Source: Candidatus Tayloriibacteriota bacterium (GTDB lineage: Bacteria > Patescibacteriota > Minisyncoccia > Phycocordibacterales > PALSA-1337). Taken from it: a stretch of DNA of 64,000 bases. Shown piece by piece: positions 5,138-63,238 of this stretch. The translations under genes and the position numbers were made by a program. The DNA lies in NCBI GenBank assembly GCA_903857825.1, contig CAIOGI010000006.1:25132-89131 (forward strand), given 5' to 3'. The first letter of the stretch is position 1; each line of letters begins with the position of its first letter. The notes beneath the pieces are model-generated. The model searched no databases, had not been told where the DNA came from, and saw only the letters and a program-made list of their open reading frames with translations.

Positions 5138-5211
5138 GGCGTAGTGGCGAAGTTGGTTAACGCAGCAGTTTGCAAAACTGCCATTCACCGGTTCGAGCCC
5201 GGTCTACGCCT
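5138..5211 (+). tRNA. tRNA-Cys (anticodon GCA), 74 nt, no encoded CCA
   Basis: Acceptor GGCGTAG/CTACGCC, anticodon stem GCAGT/ACTGC with loop TTGCAAA and T arm ACCGG-TTCGAGC-CCGGT. Confidence 0.85.
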
Positions 5212-5226
5212 CCCAAATTATTAATT

Positions 5227-5913
5227 ATGAAAAATCAAGATGACATTGATCCAAATGTCTTTTGGTATATTGTTGGATACATCGCAACTGATGGTTCACT
5301 GAGCAAAGATGGAAGGCATGTATCGATCACGTCAAAAGACCATGAACATTTAGAAAAAATCAAGAAAGAGCTTGGTATTACTTCTAAAATTACAAAAAAA
5401 TGTCGTGCCCGAGGAAAAGAAAAAATATATTCGGTAATACAGATAGGTGGCATATCAAATTATCGTTTCCTTAATTCTATTGGTATGTATTCCAGAAAGA
5501 CATGGAATATGGGTCCAATCAAGATTGACGAAAAGTTATTTGGTGATTTTCTAAGAGGTGTTATAGATGGTGATGGATGTATTTATTCTTGGAAGAATAA
5601 GAGCAATAATCATAAACAATGGTCTTTGAGAATTTCTGGAACAGCACCAAAGTTTATTGAATGGTTATTTGAGCACATACAGACAACTTTTATGGTACAA
5701 GGTAGATTACATATTGACAAAAGAAATAATCGATCAGATACATACATAATTAAATTTGGTAAATTAGCCACTCAACGTATATTGAGAGACATTTATTATG
5801 AAGATTGTTTCTGTTTAGATAGAAAATTAGTTAAAGCGAATGAGTGCTTGCAAGATGAAGCAAAGATGATAAAGTATGGTGGAGTAATATGCTCGGGTGG
5901 CGAAACTGGTTAG
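5227..5913 (+). CDS. LAGLIDADG-family homing endonuclease (two-motif, monomeric type)
   Basis: Two LAGLIDADG motifs: FWYIVGYIATDGSLS and LRGVIDGDGCIY. The listed ORF start 5170 lies inside tRNA-Cys, so the start is more likely MKNQDD at 5227. The 3' end overlaps tRNA-Leu by about 23 nt. Confidence 0.75.
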   Translation: MKNQDDIDPNVFWYIVGYIATDGSLSKDGRHVSITSKDHEHLEKIKKELGITSKITKKCRARGKEKIYSVIQIGGISNYRFLNSIGMYSRKTWNMGPIKIDEKLFGDFLRGVIDGDGCIYSWKNKSNNHKQWSLRISGTAPKFIEWLFEHIQTTFMVQGRLHIDKRNNRSDTYIIKFGKLATQRILRDIYYEDCFCLDRKLVKANECLQDEAKMIKYGGVICSGGETG

Positions 5914-5975
5914 ACGCAAAAGACTTAAAATCTTTCGACCGAAAGGTTATGCGGGTTCGACTCCCGCCCCGAGCA
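5891..5975 (+). tRNA. tRNA-Leu (anticodon TAA), 85 nt with long variable arm
   Basis: Acceptor GCTCGGG/CCCGAGC, anticodon stem AAAGA/TCTTT with loop CTTAAAA, variable arm CGACCGAAAGGTTAT and T arm GCGGG-TTCGACT-CCCGC. Confidence 0.85.
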
Positions 5976-9499: not shown

Positions 9500-9572
9500 G
9501 CGCCCATAGCTCAGTTGGTAGAGCAGATCCCTCTTAAGGATAAGGTCGTAGGTTCGATCCCTACTGGGCGCA
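9500..9572 (+). tRNA. tRNA-Lys (anticodon CTT), 73 nt
   Basis: Acceptor GCGCCCA/TGGGCGC, D arm GCTC-AGTTGGTA-GAGC, anticodon loop CTCTTAA and T arm GTAGG-TTCGATC-CCTAC. The 3' 20 nt (TACTGGGCGCACAAGTGAGG) are repeated at 9631..9652. Confidence 0.8.
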
Positions 9573-9698: not shown

Positions 9699-9780
9699 GC
9701 GCGGGTGGCGAAATTGGCAGACGCACTTGCCTTAGGAGCAAGCGGGGTAACCCTTGGAGGTTCAAGTCCTCTCCCGCGCA
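9699..9780 (+). tRNA. tRNA-Leu (anticodon TAG), 82 nt with long variable arm
   Basis: Acceptor GCGCGGG/CCCGCGC, anticodon stem CTTGC/GCAAG with loop CTTAGGA, variable arm CGGGGTAACCCTTG and T loop TTCAAGT. The 3' 18 nt are repeated at 9914..9933. Confidence 0.85.
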
Positions 9781-42000: not shown

Positions 42001-42711
42001 AAGCTTATTCATGTCTGTCTTCTTCAATATTTCAAAAATTGCCTCAGCACCAATGCCAGCTTCAAATAGAGCACCATATTTCATTGAATATCTGTGAAAT
42101 TGAACTTCATCCATTACGAAACCAGGTACTAGGCTCTCGATTTCTCTTCTAGCTGTAAGTACAAGTTCTTTCAAAGCCTCCTTTGTCTTTTCATCCTGAG
42201 CTGCTTTTACCTTTGTCTTGAATTCAGAATCAAGCTCCTTCAAGAATGCATCTTTTTCTGACTGATGAATCTTTGTAACTATATATCCAGCAAAGTAAAC
42301 AACCTTCTCTAGATCAGAAGTTGTCATTCCAAGTACTAGACCAATACGAGATGGCATAGATCGTAGGAACCATATATGTGATACGGGTGTAGCTAGCTCG
42401 ATATGTCCCATTCTGTCTCTTCGAACTATTGAACGGGTGATCTCAACTCCACATTTTTCACAAACAATTCCCTTATATCTTATTCCGCGATATTTTCCAC
42501 AATAACATTCGAAATCACGATCTGGACCAAATATCTTCTCATCAAAAAGTCCATTCTTTTCTGAACGCTGTGTTCTGTAGTTAATGGTTTCTGGCTTAGT
42601 AATTTCACCAAATGACCATTCCAAGATTTTCTCAGGCGAAGCAACACCAAGCTTCACTGCATCGAAGTCTGTTGGGTCATTTTGTCTTTTGTACATATTT
42701 TTATTTTCCAT
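39031..42711 (-). CDS. rpoC: DNA-directed RNA polymerase subunit beta'
   Basis: Catalytic NADFDGDQMAVH. N-terminal zinc-binding CYCGKYRGIRYKGIVCEKCGVEI. 1226 aa. Confidence 0.95.
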   Translation of the reverse strand: MENKNMYKRQNDPTDFDAVKLGVASPEKILEWSFGEITKPETINYRTQRSEKNGLFDEKIFGPDRDFECYCGKYRGIRYKGIVCEKCGVEITRSIVRRDRMGHIELATPVSHIWFLRSMPSRIGLVLGMTTSDLEKVVYFAGYIVTKIHQSEKDAFLKELDSEFKTKVKAAQDEKTKEALKELVLTARREIESLVPGFVMDEVQFHRYSMKYGALFEAGIGAEAIFEILKKTDMNKLLLALNAEIDKAGSLEKEKLSKRISLIKSMIKSETRPEWMFLTRIPVIPPALRPMVALDGGRYATSDVNDLYRRVINRNNRLLKLKEIDAPDVILRNEKRILQEAVDALIDNSIRHGAATGAAAIQAQKRALKSLSDNLKSKRGLFRQNLLGKRVDYSGRSVIVVGPTLALDQCGLPKHMALELFRPFVISGLLKRELAFNIRGAGRLIDDGAKEVWEILEEVIEGKYVLLNRAPTLHRLGIQAFRPILIEGNAIQVHPLVCTAFNADFDGDQMAVHVPLGVEAQLEAKEIMAADKNILKPGNGDPTVVAKLLDIVLGCFWITKIVDGDTGEGKIFESPEAALTAHNYGAVTYRAKIKVLPRDDKKYAQFEGKLFETTVGRILFNDILPSDYPFINKEIDRKKLSGIMDDLIITHDMKDIPIILDQIKTFGFKYATHSGTTWGIDDVVIPKGKIEVISKAKANSELVMDQFNEGLLTEEERLRKNIEIWHKAKNEVEKLIPASLNKMGSVYDMVTSGARGSLSQITQMAGMKGLIASTSGETIEFPIISCSKEGLTPIEYFITTHGSRKGLTDTALNTAKAGYLTRKLFVVAQDVMVNEDDCGTKESITIKKQTASGINIPLSKNIRGRVLAEDLVTADGKSLFKKNHLLSKLEAVQIEEAGITSVRVRSPLSCKSVRGVCAQCYGADLGKNKLVELGEAVGTVAGQAIGEPGTQLTMRTFHAGGTASVGGDITQGLPRVEEIFEKRRPKNPAVVATVSGTVTEVKDLGKEKVIRIMPELEDRAKGHKASEVEYLFNPKRMPFVKMGDNVKKGDLITDGSADIDEVFEFGGAEKAKDYVISEVGKIYELQGETVARKHIEIIVKQMFSRRKVTEAGNTNFAEGMIVDDTYLREENDKAKETDGSPAKVEAVVMGITEVSLSRKSFLSAASFQHTTRVLINSAVRGSEDDLVGLMENVIIGRLIPAGSGFAGSPKQKMIEAVQPKEEEYGY

Positions 42712-42735: not shown

Positions 42736-44112
42736 TTAATTGGTAATGGTGAAGTAATTATCGCTTACATCACAAGGATTACTTGAACGGACTCTTGATT
42801 CGTCAAATACATTTGGACAAATAGTTATTTTATATAATCCTGCTTTTGGTATAGTCTGACTATTTCCTCCTAATGAATACTGACCAACTGTCCACTCAAA
42901 TATGCCGGAATTACTAACAGCCTTTGCTATTATTGGACTAAAACTGGTTGTTGGCATATTTGTACCAGGCGCTGGAGGAGCTAAGCAAGGCTCAAGAACA
43001 CAATTTTCTTTTGATTCAATTTTTATATCAACAATTTTACCTTGAATTGGTTTCCAACCAATAACCTGTTTACTTCCCATCTTCCAAACTTCCCCTCCAT
43101 TTGGTGAAAGAACGGTGATGGAGGGTTGGGTGTTTGAGGTAGATGTAAATTTAAAATTATTTAATAAATCATTAATTTCATTATCGGTAAAGTTAGCTGC
43201 GTAAAAGTGGTACATGATCCCATTGTGGTAAACATAGAACCATCTTTTATCGTTTAATGACCATAATACTTTTTCACCCCCAATTGCAGAAACACGTCCT
43301 AATAAATTAGAAACAAGATTGGGTATATATGAGGTACACGATTCGACAGAATTACAACCTTTCACAACGGTTTGATCAAGACGCGACTTATCTCTTGTTT
43401 CAATACTAAATTCTTGTTTTTTATTCTCATTCACCAAAGTTAGAGTTGCTACAGTATTTGCCTTTTCACATGATGAAGGAGCGTATCCTCCTGAGATAAC
43501 TTCCATTACTCTATAATTACTTGGGTATTTAATCGTATAATTATATTTAGTGATCGCACATGAAATCAATTTATTAACTTCTAACAAGTTTTGATCTACT
43601 GAAGTCTGAGAAGTAAATTTAAGAGTTGATATAATTTGACTCATAATGCTTTTTGCAATGTTATCACCAGCAGTCATTGTTATTGATATATCATTTTTAG
43701 GTCCCATACAGATGGTTTTGTAAAAAACTAATCCAAAACCCTGTTCCCAGTCAGAATTAACACAAGCTGATCCCGTCTTCTTAATAACTAATTGCTCAAT
43801 AGGAAGATCTGTATCTGGTTTACCTTGTTTGTCTGGATTCACAATTCTAACAATATTATTGTCATCTTCTTTTATTAGCCAATTTGGAAGATATTTAATT
43901 TCAAATCCATGTTTCTCATTTATATACGTCTTCCAATCTGAAGTTACTACTGTAGACGTCGCATTTACTACCACATCATCAACCTTGGGTTCTAGAGGAG
44001 CTACCACATCCCTTGTCCCAAAGTAATATACAGCACCAGCAGCCACTGCAATAGCGACTATTATAACCATCCCCTGCGCTGCAAACCCTTTTTTATAATT
44101 TATTTTATTCAT
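42736..44112 (-). CDS. Hypothetical membrane-anchored secreted protein (458 aa) inserted between rpoB and rpoC
   Basis: N-terminal TM anchor GMVIIVAIAVAAGAVYYF. C-terminal SITVLSPNGGEVWKMGSKQVIGWKP beta-sandwich-like repeat. Confidence 0.5.
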   Translation of the reverse strand: MNKINYKKGFAAQGMVIIVAIAVAAGAVYYFGTRDVVAPLEPKVDDVVVNATSTVVTSDWKTYINEKHGFEIKYLPNWLIKEDDNNIVRIVNPDKQGKPDTDLPIEQLVIKKTGSACVNSDWEQGFGLVFYKTICMGPKNDISITMTAGDNIAKSIMSQIISTLKFTSQTSVDQNLLEVNKLISCAITKYNYTIKYPSNYRVMEVISGGYAPSSCEKANTVATLTLVNENKKQEFSIETRDKSRLDQTVVKGCNSVESCTSYIPNLVSNLLGRVSAIGGEKVLWSLNDKRWFYVYHNGIMYHFYAANFTDNEINDLLNNFKFTSTSNTQPSITVLSPNGGEVWKMGSKQVIGWKPIQGKIVDIKIESKENCVLEPCLAPPAPGTNMPTTSFSPIIAKAVSNSGIFEWTVGQYSLGGNSQTIPKAGLYKITICPNVFDESRVRSSNPCDVSDNYFTITN

Positions 44113-44277: not shown

Positions 44278-45342
44278 TTATTTCAATTTCTTAATACTAT
44301 CTCCAACCACCTTATTTGTCTCCTTGATAAATTGATCGAAGTCACTTTCAAATATTCTATCCTGAACTATTCTATACTTTTCAAATTCACTTTCTGCGAA
44401 ACTTTTTGCTATCTCTGCAGATACTTTACCAGGATTATCCAGTACTTTTCTTTTATTAAATTGTAGAAAAGCATCCAGTCTTTCTGCCCAGTCCTTCATA
44501 GTCATAGGTATTTTTTGTTCTGCTTGATCTTCCGCATAGTCAAGGTACATGGATACAATACGATCAAGAGATTTTATCTCTTTAGCGTCTAAATAATTTT
44601 TAGCAATGATCACATCAGTCTTTAAAATTTTTCCTTTTGGTGCTTTTTCCCAACTAGTTAGACCCATAAAAGGTTTCTTCGCGTCTGCTCTCTTTATAAT
44701 TACCTCAGCAGCTGTGAATCCATGTATAGCGTAGTGTAATTTATTCTGTACAGTTTTGAAAAATTTCTGGGTTAATGGTGAATCTACATCATAATCCAAT
44801 GCTGTAGTATAAATATCAGTAATTTTTTGATAGAATTTTCTTTCACTGTTTCGTATTTCACGAATTTCTTGTATAAGAGAATCATAATAATTTTGACCAA
44901 GATATGTACCATTTTCTAGTCTATCTTTATCTAATACATATCCACGGACAGCAAAAGTTTTTAGAATTCTCGTAGCCCAACGACGAAATGCAGTGGCTTT
45001 CTCTGAATTTACACGATAACCAATAGCGATAATTGTATCAAGGTTATAGTGTTCGACTTCTCTAGAAACAGAACGACTACCCTCTTTTTGAACTATTAGG
45101 AAATTCCTAATAGTTGCTTCTTTATTTAATTCATTTGATTGATATATAACTTTCAAATGTTCATTTATTGTCGGTATTCTAACTTCAAAGAGTTCAGCAA
45201 TAAGCTTTTGTGTAAGCCATAAATTTTCATTCTCGAATCGAACCTCTATTCCACTCTCTTTAGAATCAGAAGTAAACATCAGAAATTCTGCTGTACTATT
45301 ACGAATTATTAGTTTTTTTGATTCTAAATTATCTTTTTTCAT
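44278..45342 (-). CDS. RhuM-family protein, full-length (354 aa), inserted between rpoB and rpoC
   Basis: HYNLDTIIAIGYRVNSEKATAFRRWATRILKTFAVRGYVLDKDRLEN matches the conserved RhuM core (YNLDAII.VGYRVNS..ATQFRIWAT). A paralog lies at 61739..62251. Confidence 0.65.
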   Translation of the reverse strand: MKKDNLESKKLIIRNSTAEFLMFTSDSKESGIEVRFENENLWLTQKLIAELFEVRIPTINEHLKVIYQSNELNKEATIRNFLIVQKEGSRSVSREVEHYNLDTIIAIGYRVNSEKATAFRRWATRILKTFAVRGYVLDKDRLENGTYLGQNYYDSLIQEIREIRNSERKFYQKITDIYTTALDYDVDSPLTQKFFKTVQNKLHYAIHGFTAAEVIIKRADAKKPFMGLTSWEKAPKGKILKTDVIIAKNYLDAKEIKSLDRIVSMYLDYAEDQAEQKIPMTMKDWAERLDAFLQFNKRKVLDNPGKVSAEIAKSFAESEFEKYRIVQDRIFESDFDQFIKETNKVVGDSIKKLK

Positions 45343-45389: not shown

Positions 45390-48300
45390 TTACTCTGTCT
45401 CCTCTTCATCACGACCCTTTTTAATCAATTCGACATCCAATGCCAAACCACGTAGTGATTTTAGAAGCACATTGAAAGATGCTGGAAGGTTTGGTTGCTT
45501 CAATGGCTCACCCTTAACAATAGAATCGAATGCCTGAGAACGACCTTGTATATCATCAGACTTTATAGTTAGAATTTCGCGTAGTGTATAAGCTGCACCG
45601 TGACCGAGAAGAGCCCAGACTTCCATTTCTCCAAATCTCTGTCCTCCACCCTGTGCTTTTCCTCCTAGAGGCTGCTGTGTGATAAGAGAGTAAGGTCCGA
45701 TAGAACGCATGTGTATCTTATCCTCAACCATGTGATGAAGTTTCAAGATATACATATATCCGACTGCAATAGGTTGATCGAAATGATCTCCTGTTCGTCC
45801 ATCGCGTAGTTTCATTTTTCCACTTGCATCAAAGCCTGCCTTCACAAGCTCTTCTTTTATTTCAACATCTGTAGCTCCTGTGAATGGAGGGACGATAGCT
45901 TGGTAACCAAGTGTATGTGCTGCTAGTCCAAGGTGAAGTTCTAGTATCTGTCCAAGGTTCATACGTGAAGGCACACCTAATGGGGTTAGAATAACATCGA
46001 CAGGTGTTCCATCTTCCATGTATGGCATATCTTCCTCTGGAAGAATTCTAGAAATAACTCCCTTGTTTCCGTGTCGTCCAGCTAGCTTGTCTCCAACTGA
46101 AACGTTTCTTAGCTCTGCAACTTCTATGTAAATTTTCTTTATGATTCCTGACTCTAGCTTGTCACCTTTTTCTCGTGAGAATATCTTTACAGAAATAACA
46201 CGACCTCTCTTTCCTCCTTCCATTCTCTTTGATGTATCCTTTACATCACGAGCCTTCTCTCCGAAAATAGATCTAAGTAGTCTCTCTTCTGGTGTTAGCT
46301 GAGTCTCACCTCTTGGTGAAATCTTTCCAACTAGAATATCTCCAGGTCGTACTTCTGCTCCGATTCTAACGATTCCATCTTCTGCTAGATTCTTCAATTT
46401 TGCCTCTCCAACGTTTGGAATATCGCATGTAGTAACTTCTGGACCTAGTTTTGTATCACGAACATTTACTACGAATTCTTCTATGTTTATAGAACTGAAT
46501 TTACTATTCTTTACAACTCTTTCTGAAAGAATAATGGCATCTTCGTAGTTATTACCAGACCATGACATGAATGCTACTAGCATGTTTTGTCCAAGAGCGA
46601 TTTCTCCATTGTCTGAAGTAGATGTATCTACCAGCACATCTCCTTTCTTTACCTTATCTCCAACACTTACTATTGGACGTTGATGGAATGATGTGAATCC
46701 ATTTGTTCGAGAGAAATGAATAAGATCGTATTGTTTCTTTCCAACTTTCTTACCTTCAAAAATAACTTTTTTTGAATCAACATAAGTTATCTCGCCATCT
46801 TCTGGTGCAAGCACAATTCTTCCTGTATCGATAACTGCTTGCTTTTCAATACCAGTAGCAACTAAAGGAGCTTCAGGAATAAGACAAGGAGTTGCCTGCT
46901 TTTGCATGTTTGATCCCATGAGTGCTCGGTTCGCATCATCGTGGTTTAGGAATGGAATAAGAGATGTAGCAATAGAAAATGCTTGATTTGTAGATACATC
47001 TATATAGTCGACATCATCTGCCTTTGCTAGACCAGGCTTTCCATTTATACGTACCTCGACTTCTGCTGCTGTGATAGTTCCACTTTTATCATAAGGTATT
47101 GCACCGTGAGCGATTCTAAAACCTTCTTCTTCAAGTGCATTCAAATATACAATGTCCTTTGTAACCTTTCCATTCTTTACCTTTGCATAAGGAGTTTCGA
47201 TCATTCCAAAATCATTTATACGAGCATAAGTAGCAAGGTTTAGAATAAGACCAATGTTTGGACCTTCTGGTGTGTGAATAGGACAAATTCTTCCGTAGTG
47301 AGATGGGTGAACGTCTCGAACTTCGAAACCTGCTCGCTCTCGTGTTAGACCTCCAGGACCAAGTGCTGTTAGTTTTCTAAGGTTTTCGATTTCTGATAGA
47401 ACGTTTTCCTGACCCATGAACTGTGACAATTGGTTTGTAGTAAAGAACTCCTTTATACGTGCCTGAAGTGGTCTTGGGAAAACGAAATTTACAGGAAGAG
47501 TAACATCTGGCTCTACCGTAGACATCTTGTCCTGAATATTTCTCTTCATCTGTGTCATACCGACACGTAGCTTCTGCTGTAGAAGTTCACCTACATATCG
47601 AACACGTCTTGATCCTAGATGATCAATATCGTCTTCAACGGCCTCTGGAGTATTATTTAGAAGAGTAATATGAGAAATTATTGTTGAAAGGTCATCTGTT
47701 GATACTGTCTTGTGTTCAAGATCTTTTTCCTCCATTGACTTTCCGAAACGCTTGTTAAAACGGAATCTTCCAACACGAGATAGGTCATATCTTTCTGGAT
47801 TAAATATATTTCCAAGAAATTCACGAGCATTATCAGCTGTAGCCAAATCTCCATCACGAAGTCGCTTGTGTATTTCAACATATGCTTCATCTACTGTCTT
47901 TGCATGATCCTTGGCAAGAGTTTGTTCAATAGCCTTTTTTGCAAGTGCCTCCTTATCAAATAGTGCTAGTATTTCTTCATTTGTCTTTGCTCCAAGAATT
48001 CTAAGTAAAGATGTAATAGGAAACTTTCTCTTTCTGTCTATACGTGTGTAGATTGTCCCATCTGAATCTGATTCGATTTCCATCCATACTCCGCGGGCAG
48101 GAATAACCTTGGCACCAAAAAATGTCTTACCCTTTATCTCATTTGCAGTAAAAAATATACCAAAGGATCTAGCTAATTGAGGAACTATAACTCTCTCAAT
48201 CCCATTTATAATAAATGTACCGTGATTTGTCATCAAAGGAAGGTCTGCAAGAAACATTTCTTGTTCTTTGACTGCATCAAGAAGTTTATTCTTCAGCTTT

Positions 48301-48566
48301 ACCTTAACCTTTATTTGTCCTTCATATGAAAGTTTATTGTTTTTAGCATAATGCTCGTCGTACTTTGGCTTTGAAAGCTCAAAACCAGTAAAAGACAGCT
48401 CGAACTTCTTCTTGGCATAATCCTCAATTGGTGAGAATTCTTTCAACACTTCTGATATACCATTATCTAAAAATGTATCGAAAGAAATCGTCTGTGACTC
48501 AACCAAATTTGGCATAGCTGTCAATGGCTCTTTGAATCTACTGAAATACTTTTTGGTTATATGCAT
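45390..48566 (-). CDS. rpoB: DNA-directed RNA polymerase subunit beta (short, 1058 aa)
   Basis: N-terminus SFDTFLDNGISEV; C-terminal catalytic region GGQRFGEMEVWAL; conserved blocks throughout. Confidence 0.95.
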   Translation of the reverse strand: MHITKKYFSRFKEPLTAMPNLVESQTISFDTFLDNGISEVLKEFSPIEDYAKKKFELSFTGFELSKPKYDEHYAKNNKLSYEGQIKVKVKLKNKLLDAVKEQEMFLADLPLMTNHGTFIINGIERVIVPQLARSFGIFFTANEIKGKTFFGAKVIPARGVWMEIESDSDGTIYTRIDRKRKFPITSLLRILGAKTNEEILALFDKEALAKKAIEQTLAKDHAKTVDEAYVEIHKRLRDGDLATADNAREFLGNIFNPERYDLSRVGRFRFNKRFGKSMEEKDLEHKTVSTDDLSTIISHITLLNNTPEAVEDDIDHLGSRRVRYVGELLQQKLRVGMTQMKRNIQDKMSTVEPDVTLPVNFVFPRPLQARIKEFFTTNQLSQFMGQENVLSEIENLRKLTALGPGGLTRERAGFEVRDVHPSHYGRICPIHTPEGPNIGLILNLATYARINDFGMIETPYAKVKNGKVTKDIVYLNALEEEGFRIAHGAIPYDKSGTITAAEVEVRINGKPGLAKADDVDYIDVSTNQAFSIATSLIPFLNHDDANRALMGSNMQKQATPCLIPEAPLVATGIEKQAVIDTGRIVLAPEDGEITYVDSKKVIFEGKKVGKKQYDLIHFSRTNGFTSFHQRPIVSVGDKVKKGDVLVDTSTSDNGEIALGQNMLVAFMSWSGNNYEDAIILSERVVKNSKFSSINIEEFVVNVRDTKLGPEVTTCDIPNVGEAKLKNLAEDGIVRIGAEVRPGDILVGKISPRGETQLTPEERLLRSIFGEKARDVKDTSKRMEGGKRGRVISVKIFSREKGDKLESGIIKKIYIEVAELRNVSVGDKLAGRHGNKGVISRILPEEDMPYMEDGTPVDVILTPLGVPSRMNLGQILELHLGLAAHTLGYQAIVPPFTGATDVEIKEELVKAGFDASGKMKLRDGRTGDHFDQPIAVGYMYILKLHHMVEDKIHMRSIGPYSLITQQPLGGKAQGGGQRFGEMEVWALLGHGAAYTLREILTIKSDDIQGRSQAFDSIVKGEPLKQPNLPASFNVLLKSLRGLALDVELIKKGRDEEETE

Positions 48567-53143: not shown

Positions 53144-55135
53144 ATGGACTTTAGCCCCATTTTCTGTTATAGTGTATTTTCACAAATGACTCATAAAAAA
53201 CAAAAAACAGGGGCCAATACACTGATTGGAACGATAATGACCAATCGCAAAGGTATGGGCTTTGTTAAAGACCCAAAGAACGATGAAAAGGACATCATGA
53301 TAGACGTCGGGTTTTTAAATACGGCATTAAATGGCGATACGGTGGAAATTAAGATTGGAAAAAAGAATTCTTATGGACAACTTTCTGCAGAGGTCTTACG
53401 TGTTATAGAAAGGGCACGAAATTCATTTGTATGCACAATAGACAGCCGAGAAGGCATTCTAACAGCTTATCCAGATGATAAAAAAGCATATGCTTCTATT
53501 GTACTTTCATCAACTGATAAGGATCGGGTTACTATCGGCGATAAAGTTTTCGTAAAAATGAATGAATGGAAAGATGCGAAACAAAATCCTACAGGAAATA
53601 TAATAAAAGTAATTGGAAAGAAAGGTAATAATAATGTAGAAATGGAAAGTATAGTACTCGAAAGAGGATTTGAAATCGGCTTCCCTTCTGCTGTTGAAAA
53701 TGAGGCATCAGAAATAGAAAAAAACAAAATTAATGATATTAATTCTGAAATTCCAAAACGCAAGGACTTCCGTGGAACTTTGACTTTCACCATTGACCCC
53801 TTTGATGCAAAAGACTTTGATGATGCAATATCGTACAAAAATCTTGGTTCCGGCAAGTATGAAATCGGCGTACATATCGCCGATGTAAGTCATTATGTCA
53901 TAGAGGGTTCAGCTCTGGACAAGGAGGCATTGAAGCGTGGTTGTTCTATATATTTAGTCGACCGAACTATACCCATGCTTCCAGAAGTCCTATCAAATGA
54001 CGTATGTAGTCTTAATCCACATGAAGACAAGCTCACCTTCTCTGCTTGGTTTGTAATGAATGATAGAGGAGAGGTTTTAGAACGAGGCTTTGGGAAAACT
54101 ATTATAAATTCTGATCACAGATTTACTTACGAAAATGCTCAGGAAGTTTTGAATGCCAAATCAGGACAGTATTTTACTGAGCTAAATAAGCTAAATGAAA
54201 TAGCAAAGATTCTGCAAAAAGAAAAGTTCAAAAAAGGTGCAATAGAATTTGAACAAGAAGAAATCAAATTCAAATTAGATGAAAATGGAAAGCCAATAGG
54301 AGTATATAAAAAAGCTCGACTAGATACACACAAACTAGTTGAGGAATACATGCTACTAGCAAATCGTGAAGTTGCTAAACATATTTTTGACTCAATAAAA
54401 AAGAAAGGTAAAAAGGATACGGGTTCAATATACCGAATACACGACATTCCAGATCAAGAAAGAATGCTTGATTTATCAACCTTCGTAAAGGCCCTAGGAT
54501 ACAAATTGAATACGAAAGAAGGTAAAGTTACTGCTCACGATATAAAGTCGCTATTAAAGCAAATTGAGGGCACTACACATGAAGCCTTGATCAGTACTGC
54601 GGTTATAAGGTCAATGCAAAAAGCGGTTTACTCTACGAAGAACATAGGTCACTTCGGCCTAGCTTTTGAATATTACACACACTTCACTTCCCCTATTCGT
54701 CGTTATCCAGATCTGTTGATACAAAGAATTCTTCAGAGACATCTTCACAATGAACCTTTTGGTGATACAGAAATAAATTCATTTCAAAACATTGCAGAGA
54801 AATCTACAGCTAGAGAAATAGACGCAGCTGGAGCAGAAAGAGAATCAAAGAAACTCAAGCAAGTTGAGTACATGTCAGACAAAGTCGGACAAGTCTTTGA
54901 AGGTACTATTTCCGGAGTTACAGAGTGGGGTATGTATGTAGAGGAAAATGAAACTAAGTCCGAAGGAATGATCAAGATCCGAGATATCGGTGATGACTAT
55001 TTTGAATTTGATAAAAAGACTTACTCGATCTTTGGTCAAAAGACAAAGAAAAGATTTACTCTAGGAGATCCTATAAAGTTTAAGGTTGCAGGTGCTGATT
55101 TGGATAAAAAAACACTGGATTTCTTACCAGCTTAG
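53144..55135 (+). CDS. rnr: RNase II/R-family 3'-5' exoribonuclease
   Basis: RNB domain RKDFRGTLTFTIDPFDAKDFDDAIS and HFGLAFEYYTHFTSPIRRYPDLLIQRIL; C-terminal S1 domain. The true start is probably downstream of 53144, for example MTHKK at 53186. Confidence 0.8.
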   Translation: MDFSPIFCYSVFSQMTHKKQKTGANTLIGTIMTNRKGMGFVKDPKNDEKDIMIDVGFLNTALNGDTVEIKIGKKNSYGQLSAEVLRVIERARNSFVCTIDSREGILTAYPDDKKAYASIVLSSTDKDRVTIGDKVFVKMNEWKDAKQNPTGNIIKVIGKKGNNNVEMESIVLERGFEIGFPSAVENEASEIEKNKINDINSEIPKRKDFRGTLTFTIDPFDAKDFDDAISYKNLGSGKYEIGVHIADVSHYVIEGSALDKEALKRGCSIYLVDRTIPMLPEVLSNDVCSLNPHEDKLTFSAWFVMNDRGEVLERGFGKTIINSDHRFTYENAQEVLNAKSGQYFTELNKLNEIAKILQKEKFKKGAIEFEQEEIKFKLDENGKPIGVYKKARLDTHKLVEEYMLLANREVAKHIFDSIKKKGKKDTGSIYRIHDIPDQERMLDLSTFVKALGYKLNTKEGKVTAHDIKSLLKQIEGTTHEALISTAVIRSMQKAVYSTKNIGHFGLAFEYYTHFTSPIRRYPDLLIQRILQRHLHNEPFGDTEINSFQNIAEKSTAREIDAAGAERESKKLKQVEYMSDKVGQVFEGTISGVTEWGMYVEENETKSEGMIKIRDIGDDYFEFDKKTYSIFGQKTKKRFTLGDPIKFKVAGADLDKKTLDFLPA

Positions 55136-55882: not shown

Positions 55883-58105
55883 CTATTTCGCTACCTGCAC
55901 TGCCTCTTCAAACTGTATAGAAAGTAATTTTGATGCTCCATCTCCACCCATTGTCACTCCATAAAGTACGCCAGCTCGAGACATTGTCTCACGATTGTGA
56001 GTAATAAGGATAAGCTGAGAATAAGTAGAAAGATTCGCTATCATATCGCCATATTTTCTTGAATTTGCCTCATCTAGAGCCGCGTCTGTCTCATCTAAAA
56101 TAATAAATGGAGGTGGGTTAACTTGAGATATAGCAAAAAGTAGGGCAATGGAAGTCAGAGCTCTTTCCCCACCAGAAAGCATCATAAGTCCTTTTACTTT
56201 TTTTCTTGGTAAACTTACATTTATTTCAATACCCTCTTCACCCTCTTCTTCAGTGGCATCAGCTATATCAGCAATATCTGCGTCATCAGACAAAACTGAA
56301 GACAAATCCGTATCAGCCTTCTTTTTTCGTTTCTTTTCTCTAATCACATTCAACCCCGCATTTCCACCACCAAACATAAGTGAAAAATACTGCTGAAACT
56401 GAGCATTTATTTTCAAAATTCCCTCTTTGAATTCAATATCTATACGTGCATCGAGATCAGCTATCATATTATTGAGATTAGTTCTTGAGCTTTCCAGATC
56501 CACAAGTTCTCTTTCTAAAAATGCATCTCTATCCTCAACTTCTTTATATTCCTTCAGAATATCTATGTTATTTCCCGCTCCAGAATCCTCTATTCGAATT
56601 TTTATCTTTTCAATCAACTTAATACGATCATGTTGCTTTATTCTGTCCTCTTCTATAAGAATTAAATCAGCATAGTCAACAGCTTCTCTACCCACTATCA
56701 CATATGCTTCCTGCATCTCTCTTTTGAATGAATCTTCTTCTATAACTAATCTACTCTCAATATTTTTAATACCGTTCAATACACCTCGTACTTCATTTTG
56801 TCTTGCAATTATCCTGAACACATTCTTTTCTGCATCACGATTTGAGTCCTTTTCTCTTTCAATTCTTTGGCGCAGTTCATTGTATTCGAGCGTTCTAGAC
56901 CTCTCTGATTCATCTAGAGTCTTCAAAGTCTTTTCAGATTCATTCTTCTTGTTTTTTAACTCAGCAAGTTCTCTTTCAACTTCTGCTATCAGTGCCGAAT
57001 CTTCCTTGTTTTTGTGTGAAGAAATAAAGCCAAATAACATTTGCTTTATTTCAGCCAAACTTTCTAACAAACTCACCCTGTTTACAACTTCCTCAACATC
57101 CTTCAAATATATCGTCTTGAACTCATCTTTTGTTTGCTTTTCCTTTTCTTTAACGATTGTTCTTTGCCCAGCATAAATCTCTCCGTCAATTTTTCCAGCC
57201 TCACGCATAACTGCATCTTTTTCCATGCGTATCTTATGCAATACACTCTCGAGATTTATAAGCTCATCACTCTTGGCATCGCGATTTTTTGAACCCTCCA
57301 GTATTTTTCTTGCATCCGCTATCTCTATATCTAATCGAGCCAACTCTTCTACCAAGGGTACTTTTTCTACTTCTATTTTTGCCCTTTCAAGTTTTAGATA
57401 TGTTTCTTCTCTTTTTAAATATTCCTTATACAGCTTCCTAAGTTCTTCTCTTAATTCTTGTACTTTTTCAACCTTTTCTACCTGCTTTTTCAAAAACTTT
57501 AAATGTGGAGCGATCTCTCGTCTAAGTGACTCCACAGACTTCATATTTTCCTCGGTCTTCTCTAACTTTCTTTGACTTTCAAGTTTTTTGTATTGATATA
57601 TCTTCAAACCTAGGGCGTCCTCTATCATTTCTCTTCTTTCACGAATATTAGCATTGAGAATTCTGTCAGCCTCTCCTTGAGAAATGATATGGTGTCCAGA
57701 GGCTCCGATATGTGCATGTGCCAGTAATTCTACGATGTCCTTTAAACGCACTGGGGAGCCGTTTATAAAATATTCATTTGAATTGTCACGATGAACAACA
57801 CGCTCCAGTGTAACTTCATCAAAATCAACATTGAGCATTCTTTTTCTATTATCGAAAATCACCTTCACTCCTGCTCTATTTACCCTAGCACCTTCTCCGC
57901 CACCATTAAAAATGAGATCCTCGCCTCGCTTTCCGCGCATAGACTTTATACTTTGTTCACCAAGTACAAAACGAAATGCCTCTGCAACATTTGATTTACC
58001 CGAGCCATTTGGACCAACTATAGATGAGATGGGTGAAGTAAAATTTAAAGTCGCTTTTTTAGCGAATGATTTAAAACCTGAAATCTCGAGTGATTTGAGA
58101 TACAT
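55883..58105 (-). CDS. smc: SMC-family chromosome segregation ATPase (short, 740 aa)
   Basis: N-terminal LEISGFKSF...IVGPNGSGKSNVAEAFRFVLGEQS; long coiled coil; C-terminal LSGGERALTSIALLFA...ILDETDAALD. Confidence 0.75.
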   Translation of the reverse strand: MYLKSLEISGFKSFAKKATLNFTSPISSIVGPNGSGKSNVAEAFRFVLGEQSIKSMRGKRGEDLIFNGGGEGARVNRAGVKVIFDNRKRMLNVDFDEVTLERVVHRDNSNEYFINGSPVRLKDIVELLAHAHIGASGHHIISQGEADRILNANIRERREMIEDALGLKIYQYKKLESQRKLEKTEENMKSVESLRREIAPHLKFLKKQVEKVEKVQELREELRKLYKEYLKREETYLKLERAKIEVEKVPLVEELARLDIEIADARKILEGSKNRDAKSDELINLESVLHKIRMEKDAVMREAGKIDGEIYAGQRTIVKEKEKQTKDEFKTIYLKDVEEVVNRVSLLESLAEIKQMLFGFISSHKNKEDSALIAEVERELAELKNKKNESEKTLKTLDESERSRTLEYNELRQRIEREKDSNRDAEKNVFRIIARQNEVRGVLNGIKNIESRLVIEEDSFKREMQEAYVIVGREAVDYADLILIEEDRIKQHDRIKLIEKIKIRIEDSGAGNNIDILKEYKEVEDRDAFLERELVDLESSRTNLNNMIADLDARIDIEFKEGILKINAQFQQYFSLMFGGGNAGLNVIREKKRKKKADTDLSSVLSDDADIADIADATEEEGEEGIEINVSLPRKKVKGLMMLSGGERALTSIALLFAISQVNPPPFIILDETDAALDEANSRKYGDMIANLSTYSQLILITHNRETMSRAGVLYGVTMGGDGASKLLSIQFEEAVQVAK

Positions 58106-58232: not shown

Positions 58233-58970
58233 TTATGGAAAAACCTTTAAACCATAACCCTTGAATGATCCTAGATTATTTCTTCTGAATTTCCTCTCAA
58301 CTATGTCATATAGAGGGTAAGGTTCATTTGGATTTATTATATGTCTTGCTACTGGATGTGCACATAGATCTGCTACCTGTAAACCACAATCATTTTCTAT
58401 TTTTCTTCTAAATTCCATTTTCTCAAATCTTTTTTTAAATCTTTCTGGTGTAATATGCTGGCTTCCTTTATCTAATAAACGATTATGTCTTTTTTGTATG
58501 ATTTCATCTTCTACCCTACCTCTTGCCTCTAACATAAGATGTATCACGTCATCTTTACCATTATCTATTTCCATAACTGCTCGTTCAAGTAAGAAAGACA
58601 ATGAAATCTCATATGGATCATCAGCAATCTTTCCATACTTTTCAATAAATTCTTGTTTCTTAATACCAACAGCAATTACAGTAAATTTAGCATTATCAAG
58701 AATAGAATTTAATTGTCTATGAAATCTCGCCTTTATATCTAGATCAAAAAGCTTAGTAAAGATTCCTTCACATTTTCTAATCTCTCGGCTATGTAAAATA
58801 GCATGTTCACTATTGAAAAACTCCTTCTTCATTTTTACAAGCTCAGAACACACTCTCACATATTCAGAACCCTCAAATATACATCCAAGTAAAGTAAAAA
58901 CAGGAAAATTAAGGTTAATTGAGCTTAAACTTGGGTCTCCAGATTCATCTATAAAAAGGTGGTATTGCAT
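58233..58970 (-). CDS. DUF3800-domain protein
   Basis: MQYHLFIDESGD...FTVIAVGIKK matches the DUF3800 N-terminal signature (yiDESG). Confidence 0.55.
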   Translation of the reverse strand: MQYHLFIDESGDPSLSSINLNFPVFTLLGCIFEGSEYVRVCSELVKMKKEFFNSEHAILHSREIRKCEGIFTKLFDLDIKARFHRQLNSILDNAKFTVIAVGIKKQEFIEKYGKIADDPYEISLSFLLERAVMEIDNGKDDVIHLMLEARGRVEDEIIQKRHNRLLDKGSQHITPERFKKRFEKMEFRRKIENDCGLQVADLCAHPVARHIINPNEPYPLYDIVERKFRRNNLGSFKGYGLKVFP

Positions 58971-59227
58971 ATTGTGCACATTCTAGCACACTCTAAATAG
59001 GTTTTTATAACTATCGCAGCAACCTCAATACAAGCCAAAAAGGATAGGTAGCTAATAACATTTAGCACTTGTAGAATTTATGAATCAAACAAAAGTCATT
59101 TATTTCTGTATTTCCAGAATAATAGATGCAAAAAGAAAAAGCCCAGACCTCCTTGTGGTGTATGAACCACGGTCTTAAGACCTTTTCATTACTATATATT
59201 ATCACAATCAATAACCCAGTCAACTAC

Positions 59228-59923
59228 TTACCACCCCTTCACCTCCAGCGCTTTTTCCGCAGCCTTTTGTTCTGCTTCTTGTTTTGAAAGTCCTGAACCA
59301 AGCGCGACCTGAACATCTCCAATGAAAACTCCCAATGTAAACAATTTATTATGATCTGGGCCAGTTTCTTTCATTGTCTTATAGGAAGGAGTGAGCCCTG
59401 TTAACTCTTGAGCCTTTTCCTGGAAACGACTCTTGGCATCTAACCAAGATTTATTTTTTATAATCTCATCAATATCAATAATTTCAAGTAATTGTTCAGA
59501 AATAAAATTCGCAGCACCGTCATATCCTTTATCAATATAAACTGCTCCTATTATCGCTTCTATAGTATCAGCATGAATGATTGACCTTGCACGACCAGTA
59601 TCTTTTGATTCTCCCCTGGAAAGCAAAATGTATTCACCAACACCTATGTGAAGCGCAACTTTAGAGAGGCTATGAGTATTCACTAAAGCAGAACGATATG
59701 AGGTCATATCACCTTCATTTCTATCTGGAAACTTTCTAAATAGGAAACTTGTTATAACCAATTCCAAAACAGCATCGCCAAGAAATTCTAGACGTTCATT
59801 GTGTTCTAATCCAGCCCCTTTGTTTTCATTTAAATATGAACGATGTGTACATGCCTTCTTTAGCAGGCTAATATCATTAAATTTAATATTCATTTTTTCT
59901 GCGAATTTTAAATAGTCGGGCAT
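59228..59923 (-). CDS. rnc: Ribonuclease III
   Basis: RNase III signature ERLEFLGDAVLELVI; C-terminal dsRBD. Confidence 0.9.
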   Translation of the reverse strand: MPDYLKFAEKMNIKFNDISLLKKACTHRSYLNENKGAGLEHNERLEFLGDAVLELVITSFLFRKFPDRNEGDMTSYRSALVNTHSLSKVALHIGVGEYILLSRGESKDTGRARSIIHADTIEAIIGAVYIDKGYDGAANFISEQLLEIIDIDEIIKNKSWLDAKSRFQEKAQELTGLTPSYKTMKETGPDHNKLFTLGVFIGDVQVALGSGLSKQEAEQKAAEKALEVKGW

Positions 59924-59937
59924 AGATTTTCTTTTTC

Positions 59938-60831
59938 TTACTTATTTAATAGGGTAATCGCCTTTGTAACAATTGGCAATATATCATTATAAAAATTCAA
60001 TTCAAGTATATCGTCTATTTTAAACCACTTTCCATCATCAAGACCTGGTTTCTCTGCTAACTTAATATTTTCAAAATCTGATTCGGCTAGGAAATAGTGT
60101 ACTTGTTTTCTTATTTTACCCAATTCTGGATCACTTGCTATGTATTCATTATTTCCAAGATCCTCAACTATCTTAATATTCAAGCCCATTTCTTCTTTAA
60201 CTTTATTTATTGTACCCTCTCTAACATCTCCTTCTGGAATTTTGCCTTTTGACAAAGTCCAATGTCCAAATATATCGTGTACAAAGGCTAAATATATTTC
60301 TCCCTCATGTCGAGAATACACAACTGCCCCACCAAGATTTTGTACTGGCATTTGTTCGTAAGGAACACTTGCAATCTTTTTCTTTTTTGTAGAAACAGAG
60401 TCCTTACCAGGCTCACCTAATTCCTTATAAACAGAACCGAGCACTCCATTTACAAATTTTCCACTATTCTCACCACCAAAACTTTTTGCAAGTTCTATTG
60501 ATTCATTTATAGCAACCTTGGCTGGAACCTCATCTCTATTTGAAAAAAGTAATTCATATAGACCAATTCTTAGAATATTCCTATCAATGATTGAAATCTT
60601 TTCTATAGGCCAATCAGGTGCAGCTTTTCCGATAATCATATCTAAATCATTTCTCTTTGCCAAAATGTTTTTTACTAGTTCTTCGATAAAAGAAAAATCA
60701 CTCATACCAGGAGCAAACTCCTTAGAAATACGAATGATTGTTTCTTTCATCTCTTCATTATGACAACCTCGAAAGTCCCACTCAAAGAGTGATTGGAGTG
60801 CTACTGATCTTGATAGGTGTCTGTTTGCCAT
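59938..60831 (-). CDS. nusB: NusB-family antitermination domain fused to a C-terminal Nudix hydrolase domain
   Basis: Residues 1-140 are NusB-like (LSRSVALQSLFEWDF...AINESIELAKSFGGENSGKFVNGVLGSV). Residues about 160-297 are Nudix-like (GGAVVYSRHEGEIYLAFVHDIFGHWTLSKGKIPEGDVREGTINKVKEEMGL). One uninterrupted 297-codon ORF. Confidence 0.65.
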   Translation of the reverse strand: MANRHLSRSVALQSLFEWDFRGCHNEEMKETIIRISKEFAPGMSDFSFIEELVKNILAKRNDLDMIIGKAAPDWPIEKISIIDRNILRIGLYELLFSNRDEVPAKVAINESIELAKSFGGENSGKFVNGVLGSVYKELGEPGKDSVSTKKKKIASVPYEQMPVQNLGGAVVYSRHEGEIYLAFVHDIFGHWTLSKGKIPEGDVREGTINKVKEEMGLNIKIVEDLGNNEYIASDPELGKIRKQVHYFLAESDFENIKLAEKPGLDDGKWFKIDDILELNFYNDILPIVTKAITLLNK

Positions 60832-61099: not shown

Positions 61100-61738
61100 T
61101 TAGCTTATATTGGGGTTTTTTGCAAATTCAAAAATACTTTTACAGAAACTTCTCCTATGCAGGCTAATCAAGCCAAACTTCTTTACCGCCTCATAATGCT
61201 TCCTTGTCCCATACCCCTTATTTACATCAAAACTATACTCTGGATACTTCTTTGCTAAAACCCTCATTTTTCTATCTCGGGTCACTTTTGCACATATTGA
61301 GGCGAGAGCAATGACTTGCTCTTTTACATCGCCCTTTATAATTGTTTTTTGATTTTCATATTCAATGGGAGCTTTCAGACCTCCGTCGAGCAGTACTCGA
61401 GCTTCATCAGGTTTTATTTTAAGTTTGGCAATTGACATAGCAAGCGCTTTTTTTATTGCGAATGAAATCCCCTTTTTGTCTATAACTTTCTCGCTTTGAA
61501 AGATCACCACAAAATCAATCAGTCCATCTTTCCTTGCTTTTTCTATCTTTTCAAACCAAATTTCCCTTTTTTCTTCGGTTAATTGTTTTGATTCCTTGAC
61601 CCCTCGAAAATACTTTTTTGCCTCCGGTTCTAAGTACACGAAAGCCCCCACAGCCACTGGTCCAGCTATGGGCCCACGACCAACTTCGTCGATGCCTATA
61701 AGGTATTTAATATTTATATTTTTTAAATCTTTTTTCAT
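61100..61738 (-). CDS. rnhB: Ribonuclease HII
   Basis: IGIDEVGRGPIAGPVAVGAF is the RNase HII active-site DE motif; 212 aa. Confidence 0.85.
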   Translation of the reverse strand: MKKDLKNINIKYLIGIDEVGRGPIAGPVAVGAFVYLEPEAKKYFRGVKESKQLTEEKREIWFEKIEKARKDGLIDFVVIFQSEKVIDKKGISFAIKKALAMSIAKLKIKPDEARVLLDGGLKAPIEYENQKTIIKGDVKEQVIALASICAKVTRDRKMRVLAKKYPEYSFDVNKGYGTRKHYEAVKKFGLISLHRRSFCKSIFEFAKNPNIS

Positions 61739-62251
61739 TTAAGTTTTATCATTCCCCTCCATATTCTTTGTAATTTTTAAAGTAAGTTTACCTTTCAATT
61801 TGCCCTTATATTTATTCGAAGTAATCAATGCCAATGTTTCCTGCAAACCCTCTATTACTTCTGGATTCTTCTTTAATTTATACTCTTGTAAAACATAACC
61901 ATTTTTTAAATATTCTCTCAATACTCCAGTCGCCCAAATACGAAATTGAGTCGCTTTCTTTGAATTTACACGATAACCGACTGCGATAATAGCGTCGAGA
62001 TTATAGAACTTAGTTTCATATGACTTCCCATCAGCTCCAGTATTCCGGAATTTCCGGATAACTGAATTAATGTCTAATTCCTCAGTTTTGAAAATATTCT
62101 GCAGATGCTCACTAATAGTTCTTACATTAATTTCAAACAATTCAGCAATTTGTGCTTGTGTAGCCCAAATTGTGTCTTCCTTAATGTCTGCCCTTAGCTC
62201 AATGACCCCGCCCTTTCCTTGATAAATGATTATATTATTCTTTTTATCCAT
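61739..62251 (-). CDS. RhuM-family protein, short or truncated paralog (170 aa)
   Basis: FYNLDAIIAVGYRVNSKKATQFRIWATGVLREYLKNGYVLQE. Lacks the C-terminal half present in the 44278..45342 paralog. Confidence 0.6.
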   Translation of the reverse strand: MDKKNNIIIYQGKGGVIELRADIKEDTIWATQAQIAELFEINVRTISEHLQNIFKTEELDINSVIRKFRNTGADGKSYETKFYNLDAIIAVGYRVNSKKATQFRIWATGVLREYLKNGYVLQEYKLKKNPEVIEGLQETLALITSNKYKGKLKGKLTLKITKNMEGNDKT

Positions 62252-62464: not shown

Positions 62465-63238
62465 TTACAAACAGCGAGTAGCCATCCTGTCCACATAAGC
62501 TTGAAAAAGAGCCGGCTCAAAATATTGCCCCCCGATCAATCCTGGCGCCCAAGTGATTGCATGAGGAGTTTTCTTCCGAATTTCTTCATACTCATTTCGG
62601 GTGAGGATTTTTTCAGGTTTTGACCTTTCTTGTCCATACTGTTCGTCAGCGTTGGGGTAAGCAACCCCTTTTTGCATATTGACATAGCAAATCATTGAAC
62701 CCATCTTTGAGTCACGTGGTTCGAGAGTTTTCCATACTTCGATCAGAAGACTCCGGTCCAGACATGCGATAACTCTCTTCTCGGCATCAATTACCGCCGG
62801 ATAAAATGCCATGAGTCCGTGAGTAAGTTGTAGAAAGAAAACTTTATCCAGCCGATAACCTTGCTCTTTTGGGTCCTTCTTGAACAACTCGAACAGGTTG
62901 GAGGGGATACCTTCTCCGTTAAAACGCTGTTCTAAACTTTTTCTGGATTGTTCAACTGCAACCTCCTCCTGTTTTCTTTTGTCGGTCTGTTCCTTGTAGA
63001 CCGCTCCCGTCACATGTCTGTCACCATCCAAAGAATGTTGACATGTTTCGCACAGAGGAGCTCCACAGATCAACGAGCTCCCATGATCACAGTCTTGAGT
63101 TGCTTTCGCCCCACAACTGCAACATTTCAGATTTTCATGCTTGCTGCACCATCCGTTTGTGCTTGGTTTGTCACACTTGCCTACCCATGAGACTTCGAGT
63201 AGACATGGTTTAGACTTCGGCATTTCAATGTCAGCCAT
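62465..63238 (-). CDS. Cys-rich hypothetical protein (zinc-ribbon-like N-terminus) on a GC-elevated (about 45-50%) segment
   Basis: C..KC..W...CSKH...CCSCG....DCDH....C....CETCQH cluster. The composition stands out from the flanks. Confidence 0.45.
   Translation of the reverse strand: MADIEMPKSKPCLLEVSWVGKCDKPSTNGWCSKHENLKCCSCGAKATQDCDHGSSLICGAPLCETCQHSLDGDRHVTGAVYKEQTDKRKQEEVAVEQSRKSLEQRFNGEGIPSNLFELFKKDPKEQGYRLDKVFFLQLTHGLMAFYPAVIDAEKRVIACLDRSLLIEVWKTLEPRDSKMGSMICYVNMQKGVAYPNADEQYGQERSKPEKILTRNEYEEIRKKTPHAITWAPGLIGGQYFEPALFQAYVDRMATRCL

Follow-up and report, generated by a model that had tools for sequence, protein, structure and literature searches.

A gene within a 64,000-nucleotide stretch of a Candidatus Tayloriibacteriota bacterium genome (assembly GCA_903857825.1, contig CAIOGI010000006.1, positions 25,132 to 89,131; hereafter the window, with all coordinates counted from its first letter) encodes a two-domain NusB protein, in which the antitermination factor continues through a conserved tether into a Nudix-fold domain. 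Our analysis indicated that this nusB::nudix gene (59938..60831, minus strand; 297 codons plus TAA) is fused throughout a clade and kept under purifying selection, and we hold these points, along with the identities of both domains, with very high confidence. Regarding function, we favor, with middling confidence, a reading in which the Nudix module is a ligand-binding and largely non-catalytic unit tethered to the NusB/NusE-BoxA complex.

Domain architecture and spread of the fusion

The initial annotation, made from the letters of the window, had proposed a single 297-codon open reading frame (ORF) at 59938-60831 with an N-terminal NusB fold and a C-terminal Nudix fold, without stating its strand. 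Translation of the window placed the start codon ATG at 60829-60831 and the stop codon TAA at 59938-59940 on the minus strand, with zero in-frame stops, and both folds were recovered by family models, structure prediction, and structure comparison, as described below.

The NusB domain occupies residues 1-138 (60418..60831, minus strand). It matched the Pfam family PF01029 over residues 7-136 (E=2.2e-34; 119 bits against a cut-off of 23.1) and the NCBIfam nusB equivalog TIGR01951 (124 bits against a cut-off of 88), and NusB entries of the PDB matched it at E=1e-20 to 1e-13. The AlphaFold2 (AF2) model of this domain contains seven helices with a predicted local distance difference test score (pLDDT) mostly above 90, and Foldseek aligned the all-helical half with 1eyv, 3r2c, and 3imq at template modeling (TM) scores of 0.83-0.87, the best being the NusB of the NusB-NusE-BoxA complex 3r2c (TM 0.87; root mean square deviation [rmsd], 2.0 Å). 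The ratio of nonsynonymous to synonymous substitution rates (dN/dS) was 0.062 for this domain, and its mean identity was 72%. A second NusB or a second Nudix protein was not found in the 64-kb window. Because the domain scores at the equivalog level of the hidden Markov models (HMMs), is very highly conserved, sits in core-gene synteny, and lacks a paralogue in the window, it is almost certainly the organism's own NusB. Residue N122 (60466-60468) presumably stands at the position of E. coli NusB D118, judging from a hand alignment; the D118N replacement is the nusB101 allele, which raises BoxA affinity.

The Nudix-fold domain comprises residues 167-297 (59941..60333, minus strand) and matched PF00293 over residues 179-283 (E=8.5e-7; 29.5 bits, above the gathering cut-off of 21.1). 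A profile built from 33 fused C-terminal domains and searched against PDB sequences retrieved the Aquifex diadenosine tetraphosphate (Ap4A) hydrolase aq_158 (3i7u, E=1.7e-17), Chlamydia CT771 (4ilq, E=8.6e-14), the Thermus Ap6A hydrolase Ndx1 (1vc8, E=1.3e-13), human NUDT2 (3u53, E=1.5e-10), the Caenorhabditis elegans Ap4A hydrolase (1kt9, E=1.7e-10), M. tuberculosis Rv2985 (9cxx, E=9.5e-10), and Dcp2 (4kg4 and others, E about 2e-9), with BdRppH (3ees/3ffu) reaching only E=2.7e-4. A model of the domain alone, with the alpha/beta/alpha Nudix fold (pLDDT 96.8; predicted TM score [pTM], 0.89), superposed on 3i7u with TM 0.82/0.88 and an rmsd of 2.0 Å, and hundreds of Nudix structures matched it in Foldseek at E≤1e-3, with the hydrolases of dinucleoside polyphosphates (ApnA) on top. 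Profile and structure searches alike assign the C-terminal domain to the Ap4A hydrolase/NUDT2-like branch of the Nudix superfamily, which sharpens the initial assignment. Membership in the RppH family was rejected, as the equivalog model NF001936 gave 17.6 bits, far under its curated cut-off of 118.

Between the two domains lies a Lys-rich linker of about 28 residues (residues 139-166, 60334..60417, minus strand; GEPGKDSVSTKKKKIASVPYEQMPVQNL) with the conserved motif KE[LMI]GEPGK[DE], a Lys-rich stretch, and [IV]P[YF]E.MP[IV]..LGG. The whole-protein AF2 model, computed from a 50-sequence alignment, comprised two confident domains (pLDDT mostly >90) with an overall pTM of 0.52, and the center of the linker (residues 141-154) was predicted to be disordered at a pLDDT of about 40. 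According to the model, a flexible tether joins two rigid bodies, and no interface between them is predicted with confidence; a fixed interface was considered and found unsupported, given the low pTM and the disordered linker. Approximate dN/dS values among close pairs, for which dS was near 1, were lowest in the linker (0.024), followed by the NusB (0.062) and Nudix (0.082) domains, and strong purifying selection acts on all three parts alike. The linker is more than a junk spacer, since its motif is conserved and its dN/dS is the lowest of the three.

The fusion is widespread. A protein 100% identical to that of the window (P0001) is on record from 28 contigs, and the 120 best database relatives were 76-100% identical and 255-308 residues long, most of them with both Pfam domains. 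When each GTDB species was represented by a single genome, the fused gene was detected in at least 541 genomes, whose informative titles named Taylorbacteria, Paceibacterota, Parcubacteria, Nomurabacteria, and Patescibacteria. The fused ORF also occurred in thousands of metagenomic protein clusters, including all 8000 of the 8000 scored candidates at E≤1e-5.

An exhaustive search of 1.84 billion representatives with the C-terminal half alone revealed a compact family (656 matches at E≤1e-3, of which 141 reached E≤1e-10). NusB was also present in 60 of the best 150 matches, and many of the remainder were fragments beginning within the linker. Short "stand-alone" matches often begin in the linker motif (P0130 at GEP, P0144 at MPVE) and are probably pieces of fusions. 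P0161 is a true stand-alone Nudix relative in a mobile element-like context (integrase, DNA methylase, RepO-like). A split-gene layout with a lone nudix gene beside nusB was sought and rejected: P0161 is not adjacent to nusB, and the ORF found upstream of P0197 does not encode a NusB C terminus. The distant member P0213 is labeled Alphaproteobacteria, and a mis-binned metagenome-assembled genome is suspected. The same Nudix subtype also occurred in other architectures, namely P0206, in which Sigma70_r4 and a DnaA C-terminal helix-turn-helix precede a NUDIX domain with RK at the RE position of the box, and P0216 (577 amino acids), with a weak CSD match, NusB, and NUDIX. These two provide precedent for a Nudix module tethered to nucleic acid binders. 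A basic, Trp/Arg-rich C-terminal tail was common to P0231, P0255, and P0216.

Catalytic box, nucleotide pocket, and proposed function of the Nudix module

The Nudix box (GKIPEGDVREGTINKVKEEMGL; residues 196-217, 60181..60246, minus strand) is degenerate, as had been noted from the sequence. It has 22 residues in the form G-x5-D-x6-N-K-V-x-E-E-x-G-L, compared with the 23 residues of the consensus GX5EX7REUXEEXGU. Alignment to canonical relatives (MutT numbering) showed that G38, E56 (E3), E57 (E4), and G59 are kept as G196, E213, E214, and G216, the last followed by L217. Three of the six signature residues are replaced: E44 (E1) by D202, beside a one-residue deletion, R52 by N209, and E53 (E2) by K210. 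In the profile alignment, K210 takes the place of E58 of human NUDT2, the position that carries a mutation in PDB entry 4ijx, leaving a lysine where a catalytic glutamate would be expected.

Variation of the box extends across the family. Of the 51 fused representatives, 7 had a fully canonical box, compared with 22 of the 32 non-fused proteins, a set that includes some fusion fragments. The E2 position was occupied by K (12), E (12), V (10), I (8), and A (6) in the 51 fused representatives. In the clade to which the window belongs, represented by 81 species-level genes, the same position held K (49), E (23), A (4), V (3), and R (2), with R (49), A (16), and N (6) at the arginine position and D (57), T (7), and E (5) at E1. 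On a simple neighbor-joining tree of 121 fused proteins, built with the box columns excluded, the 23 canonical boxes were scattered and required at least 15 state changes by parsimony. As re-invention of the full consensus is unlikely, this scatter suggests that the canonical box was lost repeatedly and independently in the fused family, and some of the 23 members that carry it may still hydrolyze.

The nucleotide pocket presents a different picture. Eleven residues (D186, W191, T192, K195, E214, Y230, K242, Y246, W269, Y281, and D283) were invariant in all 81 species-level genes, and four of them aligned by profile with human NUDT2 (K195 with K42, Y230 with Y82, K242 with K89, and Y281 with F128). 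In NUDT2, K42 and Y82 hold the P1 phosphate, as does the K89 equivalent in the Plasmodium enzyme, and adenine is stacked between Y82 and F128 (PMC4734340). The window protein has both the adenine-stacking pair and the P1-phosphate Lys/Tyr set, as read from sequence alignment. The determinants of adenine-polyphosphate binding thus appear fixed, whereas between one and three of the residues for catalysis or metal binding vary. An incomplete catalytic box with the fold and pocket under selection is a trait shared with the non-catalytic, ligand-binding Nudix domains of the CFIm25 and NrtR type, a class defined by function and not by descent. Because the box was repeatedly lost while the pocket residues remained invariant, binding is better supported than hydrolysis, and "binding rather than canonical catalysis" seems a somewhat better than even description of the window protein.

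Several observations weigh against this interpretation. The acidic residues E213 and E214 (E3 and E4 of the box) and D202 remain, so the window protein may retain a single-metal site with residual or altered hydrolysis. The ancestral fusion was probably an enzyme, since 23 of the 121 fused proteins keep a perfect box. Certain members of the superfamily, GDP-mannose mannosyl hydrolase among them, are active despite a box that departs from the consensus. In addition, conservation of the pocket was mapped through sequence alignment and not through a ligand-bound structure, and the whole-protein model has no fixed domain interface (pTM 0.52), so its geometry is unusable.

A possible but clearly less probable alternative is that the module is a working pyrophosphohydrolase, either an ApnA hydrolase or an RppH-like enzyme removing 5'-triphosphate (ppp) or Np4 caps, which NusB would bring to the transcription complex or to the 5' end of nascent pre-rRNA. 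All solved relatives in the subfamily are catalytic, NUDT2 and RppH work on pppRNA and Np4N caps (PMC9283932), E213 and E214 are nearly invariant with D202 common, the perfect 23-residue box persists in 23 of 121 fused members, and purifying selection is strong. However, E1, R, and E2 are lost in the window lineage, with K210 at the NUDT2 E58 position; the E2 position varies among K, E, V, I, and A across the family while the pocket residues are fixed; the 15 or more state changes in the box can be taken as relaxed selection on catalysis; and likeness to RppH is far below the NCBIfam cut-off (17.6 versus 118 bits). This alternative is essentially the idea of the initial annotation, in which the Nudix domain would act on RNA 5' caps or nucleotide alarmones at the transcribing polymerase. 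That class of substrates fits the ApnA hydrolase subfamily, whereas catalytic action on them is doubtful in a lineage without E1, R, and E2.

The lability of the catalytic residues would also suit a Nudix fold that serves as a pure protein adaptor, bridging NusB/E-BoxA to RNA polymerase (RNAP), NusA, or NusG in the manner of SuhB, or recruiting RNase III, and that binds neither a small molecule nor an RNA end. A flexible, conserved tether would fit a reach-and-grab adaptor, and SuhB, which has an enzyme fold, is a proposed bridge of NusB/E-BoxA and RNAP (PMC4807359). We nevertheless consider such a scaffold unlikely, as the invariant residues are those aligned with the nucleotide contacts of Ap4A hydrolases, and an adenine sandwich with phosphate-binding lysines would not be expected to persist in a pure protein interface.

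In a third alternative, the NusB-like domain merely targets the Nudix enzyme to RNA, and the true NusB is encoded elsewhere. RsmB uses its N-terminal NusB-like domain in this way, and RsmB models did match the window protein weakly, with the matches confined to the NusB region. These matches scored 17-55 bits against cut-offs of 269-540, in contrast to 124 against 88 bits for TIGR01951, and a methyltransferase domain was absent from the Pfam matches of the window protein. Together with the lack of a second NusB in the 64-kb window, the NusB label given by both NCBI and JGI, and a level of conservation appropriate to a core factor (72% mean identity, dN/dS 0.06), this makes RsmB-like targeting highly improbable. 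Finally, no point was found in favor of an artefact of sequencing or assembly, in which two neighboring genes would have been merged by a frameshift or by loss of a stop. Such an artefact is ruled out by recurrence of the same uninterrupted ORF in at least 541 GTDB species representatives and thousands of metagenomic clusters and by the linker being the most constrained of the three parts; the fusion is genuine.

NusB here carries an added tether, flexible, conserved, Lys-rich, and about 28 residues long, that bears a Nudix domain descended from Ap4A-type hydrolases. In the reading that we favor, this domain would add a nucleotide- or RNA-end-binding site to the NusB/NusE-BoxA complex. In E. 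coli, NusB-NusE binds BoxA of the rRNA leader and keeps it at the elongating polymerase; the held leader can pair with downstream sequence to give an RNase III substrate, and rnc mutations suppress the rRNA maturation defects of nus and suhB mutants (PMC4807359). The ligand, which would be an adenine nucleotide with a polyphosphate, might be the ppp- or Np4-capped nucleotide that forms the 5' terminus of the nascent pre-rRNA leader, the related enzymes NUDT2 and RppH also acting on RNA 5' ends (pppRNA and Np4N caps; PMC9283932), or it might be a free dinucleoside polyphosphate (ApnA) or ATP. Either identity is speculative and proposed with low confidence. This could supply NusB-NusE on BoxA with either a metabolic input or a second anchor, on the 5' end of the transcript, during the time in which the leader is kept in place to fold and be processed by RNase III. 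Direct contact with a phosphate, in the role of Mg2+, may fall to K210, which stands where a metal-ligand glutamate would be. Hydrolysis would be dispensable for the selected function, perhaps vestigial in the window lineage and perhaps persisting in the orthologues with a canonical box. In a more specific and rather doubtful version, the tethered pseudo-Nudix domain would read the 5'-terminal nucleotide of nascent pre-rRNA (ppp-A or an Np4A cap) or the stress dinucleotide Ap4A, so that the NusB of Patescibacteria clamps the 5' end of the leader throughout co-transcriptional folding and processing by RNase III and directly couples rRNA maturation to a nucleotide signal, in effect a one-polypeptide replacement, in these reduced genomes, for accessory factors of the complex for antitermination of rRNA transcription (rrnTAC) such as SuhB.

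Genomic neighborhood

The rnhB-rpmF-nusB-rnc string of the initial annotation was confirmed by Pfam, with all four genes on the minus strand. The gene rpmF, for ribosomal protein L32 (60863..61087, PF01783), lies 31 nt upstream of nusB::nudix, preceded by rnhB for RNase HII (61100..61738, PF01351), and rnc for RNase III (59228..59923, Ribonucleas_3_3 and dsrm) begins 14 nt past the nusB::nudix stop. Across 80 related loci, rpmF was immediately upstream in 75, rnc was immediately downstream or overlapping in 73, and rnhB was upstream on the same strand in 62, with the RNase HII and SMC genes mostly close by. By analogy with E. coli, the conserved adjacency of nusB and rnc fits a functional link between Nus factors and RNase III. 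Promoter and terminator scans around the operon gave no excess over shuffled expectation and were not used. The 64-kb window contains no rRNA genes and hence no BoxA leader; five tRNA genes are present (2764-2834, 5138-5211, 5891-5975, 9500-9572, and 9699-9780).

Other features of the surrounding region were recorded as side observations. A DUF3800 gene (58233-58979, minus strand) sits between rnc and smc; it looks like a variable insert, because smc directly follows rnc in many related loci, about 700-760 nt past the nusB stop. The SMC protein (55883-58105, minus strand) is only 740 amino acids long, with SMC_N head halves at both ends and no match to the hinge domain, and its coiled coil seems far shorter than expected of a bacterial SMC. 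An RNase R gene with RNB, CSD, and S1 domains (53144-55135, plus strand) is located a few kilobases from the nusB-rnc cluster. Directly upstream of rnhB, a short RhuM-like ORF (61739-62251, minus strand; 170 amino acids) matches the RhuM profile over no more than its first third, and a 257-amino-acid ORF (62465-63238, minus strand) has a Cys-rich N terminus with several CxxC-like pairs and no Pfam match. The genes rpoB (45390-48566) and rpoC (39031-42711), both on the minus strand, are separated by about 2.7 kb that hold a 458-amino-acid ORF without a Pfam match (42736-44112) and, at 44278-45342, a RhuM-family gene of full length (PF13310, E=3.9e-110). Interruption of rpoB/rpoC by an insertion is unusual, and the two RhuM-like ORFs suggest mobile or variable inserts beside core genes.

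Relation to known systems

NusB is the textbook example of a single-domain factor. We found no description of a NusB-Nudix fusion in the searchable literature, and annotation databases label the protein plainly as NusB. A clade-wide, strongly conserved, two-domain NusB is probably new relative to that literature, with an enzyme-derived and probably sensor-like Nudix module; abundant as it is, such a NusB would surprise specialists in the field. Should the module indeed recognize an ApnA alarmone or the 5' end of an RNA, nucleotide signaling or RNA-end chemistry would be physically and directly linked to the machine for rRNA antitermination and folding, and the protein would show consolidation of that machine in the genome-reduced Patescibacteria. 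The canonical- and degenerate-box orthologues of close relatives also form a natural series from enzyme to pseudoenzyme in which the binding pocket is kept.

The first 138 residues of the window protein share the all-helical fold of NusB from E. coli, Aquifex aeolicus, Thermotoga maritima, and M. tuberculosis. The solved NusB chains that it matched are single-domain proteins of 139-156 residues, whereas the window protein continues past NusB through a conserved tether into a Nudix domain of 130 residues. To our knowledge, RsmB, in which a NusB-like N-terminal domain is joined to an rRNA methyltransferase, is the only other well-known fusion of a NusB-type fold to a catalytic fold. The NusB-like domain of RsmB is divergent; the window protein has no methyltransferase domain, and its NusB part is at the equivalog level.

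The ApnA hydrolases (3i7u; 1vc8; CT771, 4ilq/4mpo; NUDT2, 3u53/4ijx; 1ktg; and Rv2985, 9cxx) were the best profile and structural matches of the C-terminal half. They have in common with it the WT[LF][PS]KG motif, an adenine stack of the Y230/Y281 type, and P1-phosphate ligands of the K195/Y230/K242 type. Most of these solved relatives are single-domain proteins, although Rv2985/MutT1 has an extra domain; the window protein differs in its fusion to NusB and its 22-residue box. RppH/NudH, also a Nudix enzyme, has RNA 5' ends and Np4N caps as its substrates, but its HMM likeness to the window protein is weak, and its metal binding requires the canonical catalytic glutamates, one of which is missing here.

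Three further systems resemble the proposed arrangement in how they work. CFIm25 (NUDT21) is a Nudix-fold subunit of an RNA-processing machine that lacks two box glutamates and binds Ap4A (Kd 2.4 µM) and ATP with no hydrolysis (PMC2425470). It is not a close homologue, being eukaryotic and dimeric, lacking E2 and E4, and using another adenine-stacking residue, whereas the window protein keeps E4. NrtR is similarly a bacterial Nudix domain fused to a nucleic acid-binding domain, in this case a winged helix. Its Nudix domain, a non-catalytic effector sensor crystallized with ADP-ribose, was among the top Foldseek matches (E=1e-9), but the likeness is lower than that of the ApnA hydrolases (TM 0.71-0.76; rmsd, 4.5 Å; profile E 3.6e-4), the pocket is of the ADP-ribose type, and the partner domain binds DNA. 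SuhB of the E. coli rrn antitermination complex is a hypothesized analogue, with a phosphatase-family fold located at NusB/E-BoxA and RNAP and a genetic tie to RNase III; it differs in being a separate, dimeric polypeptide of the inositol monophosphatase fold, whereas in the window protein the added enzyme-derived fold is part of the NusB chain.

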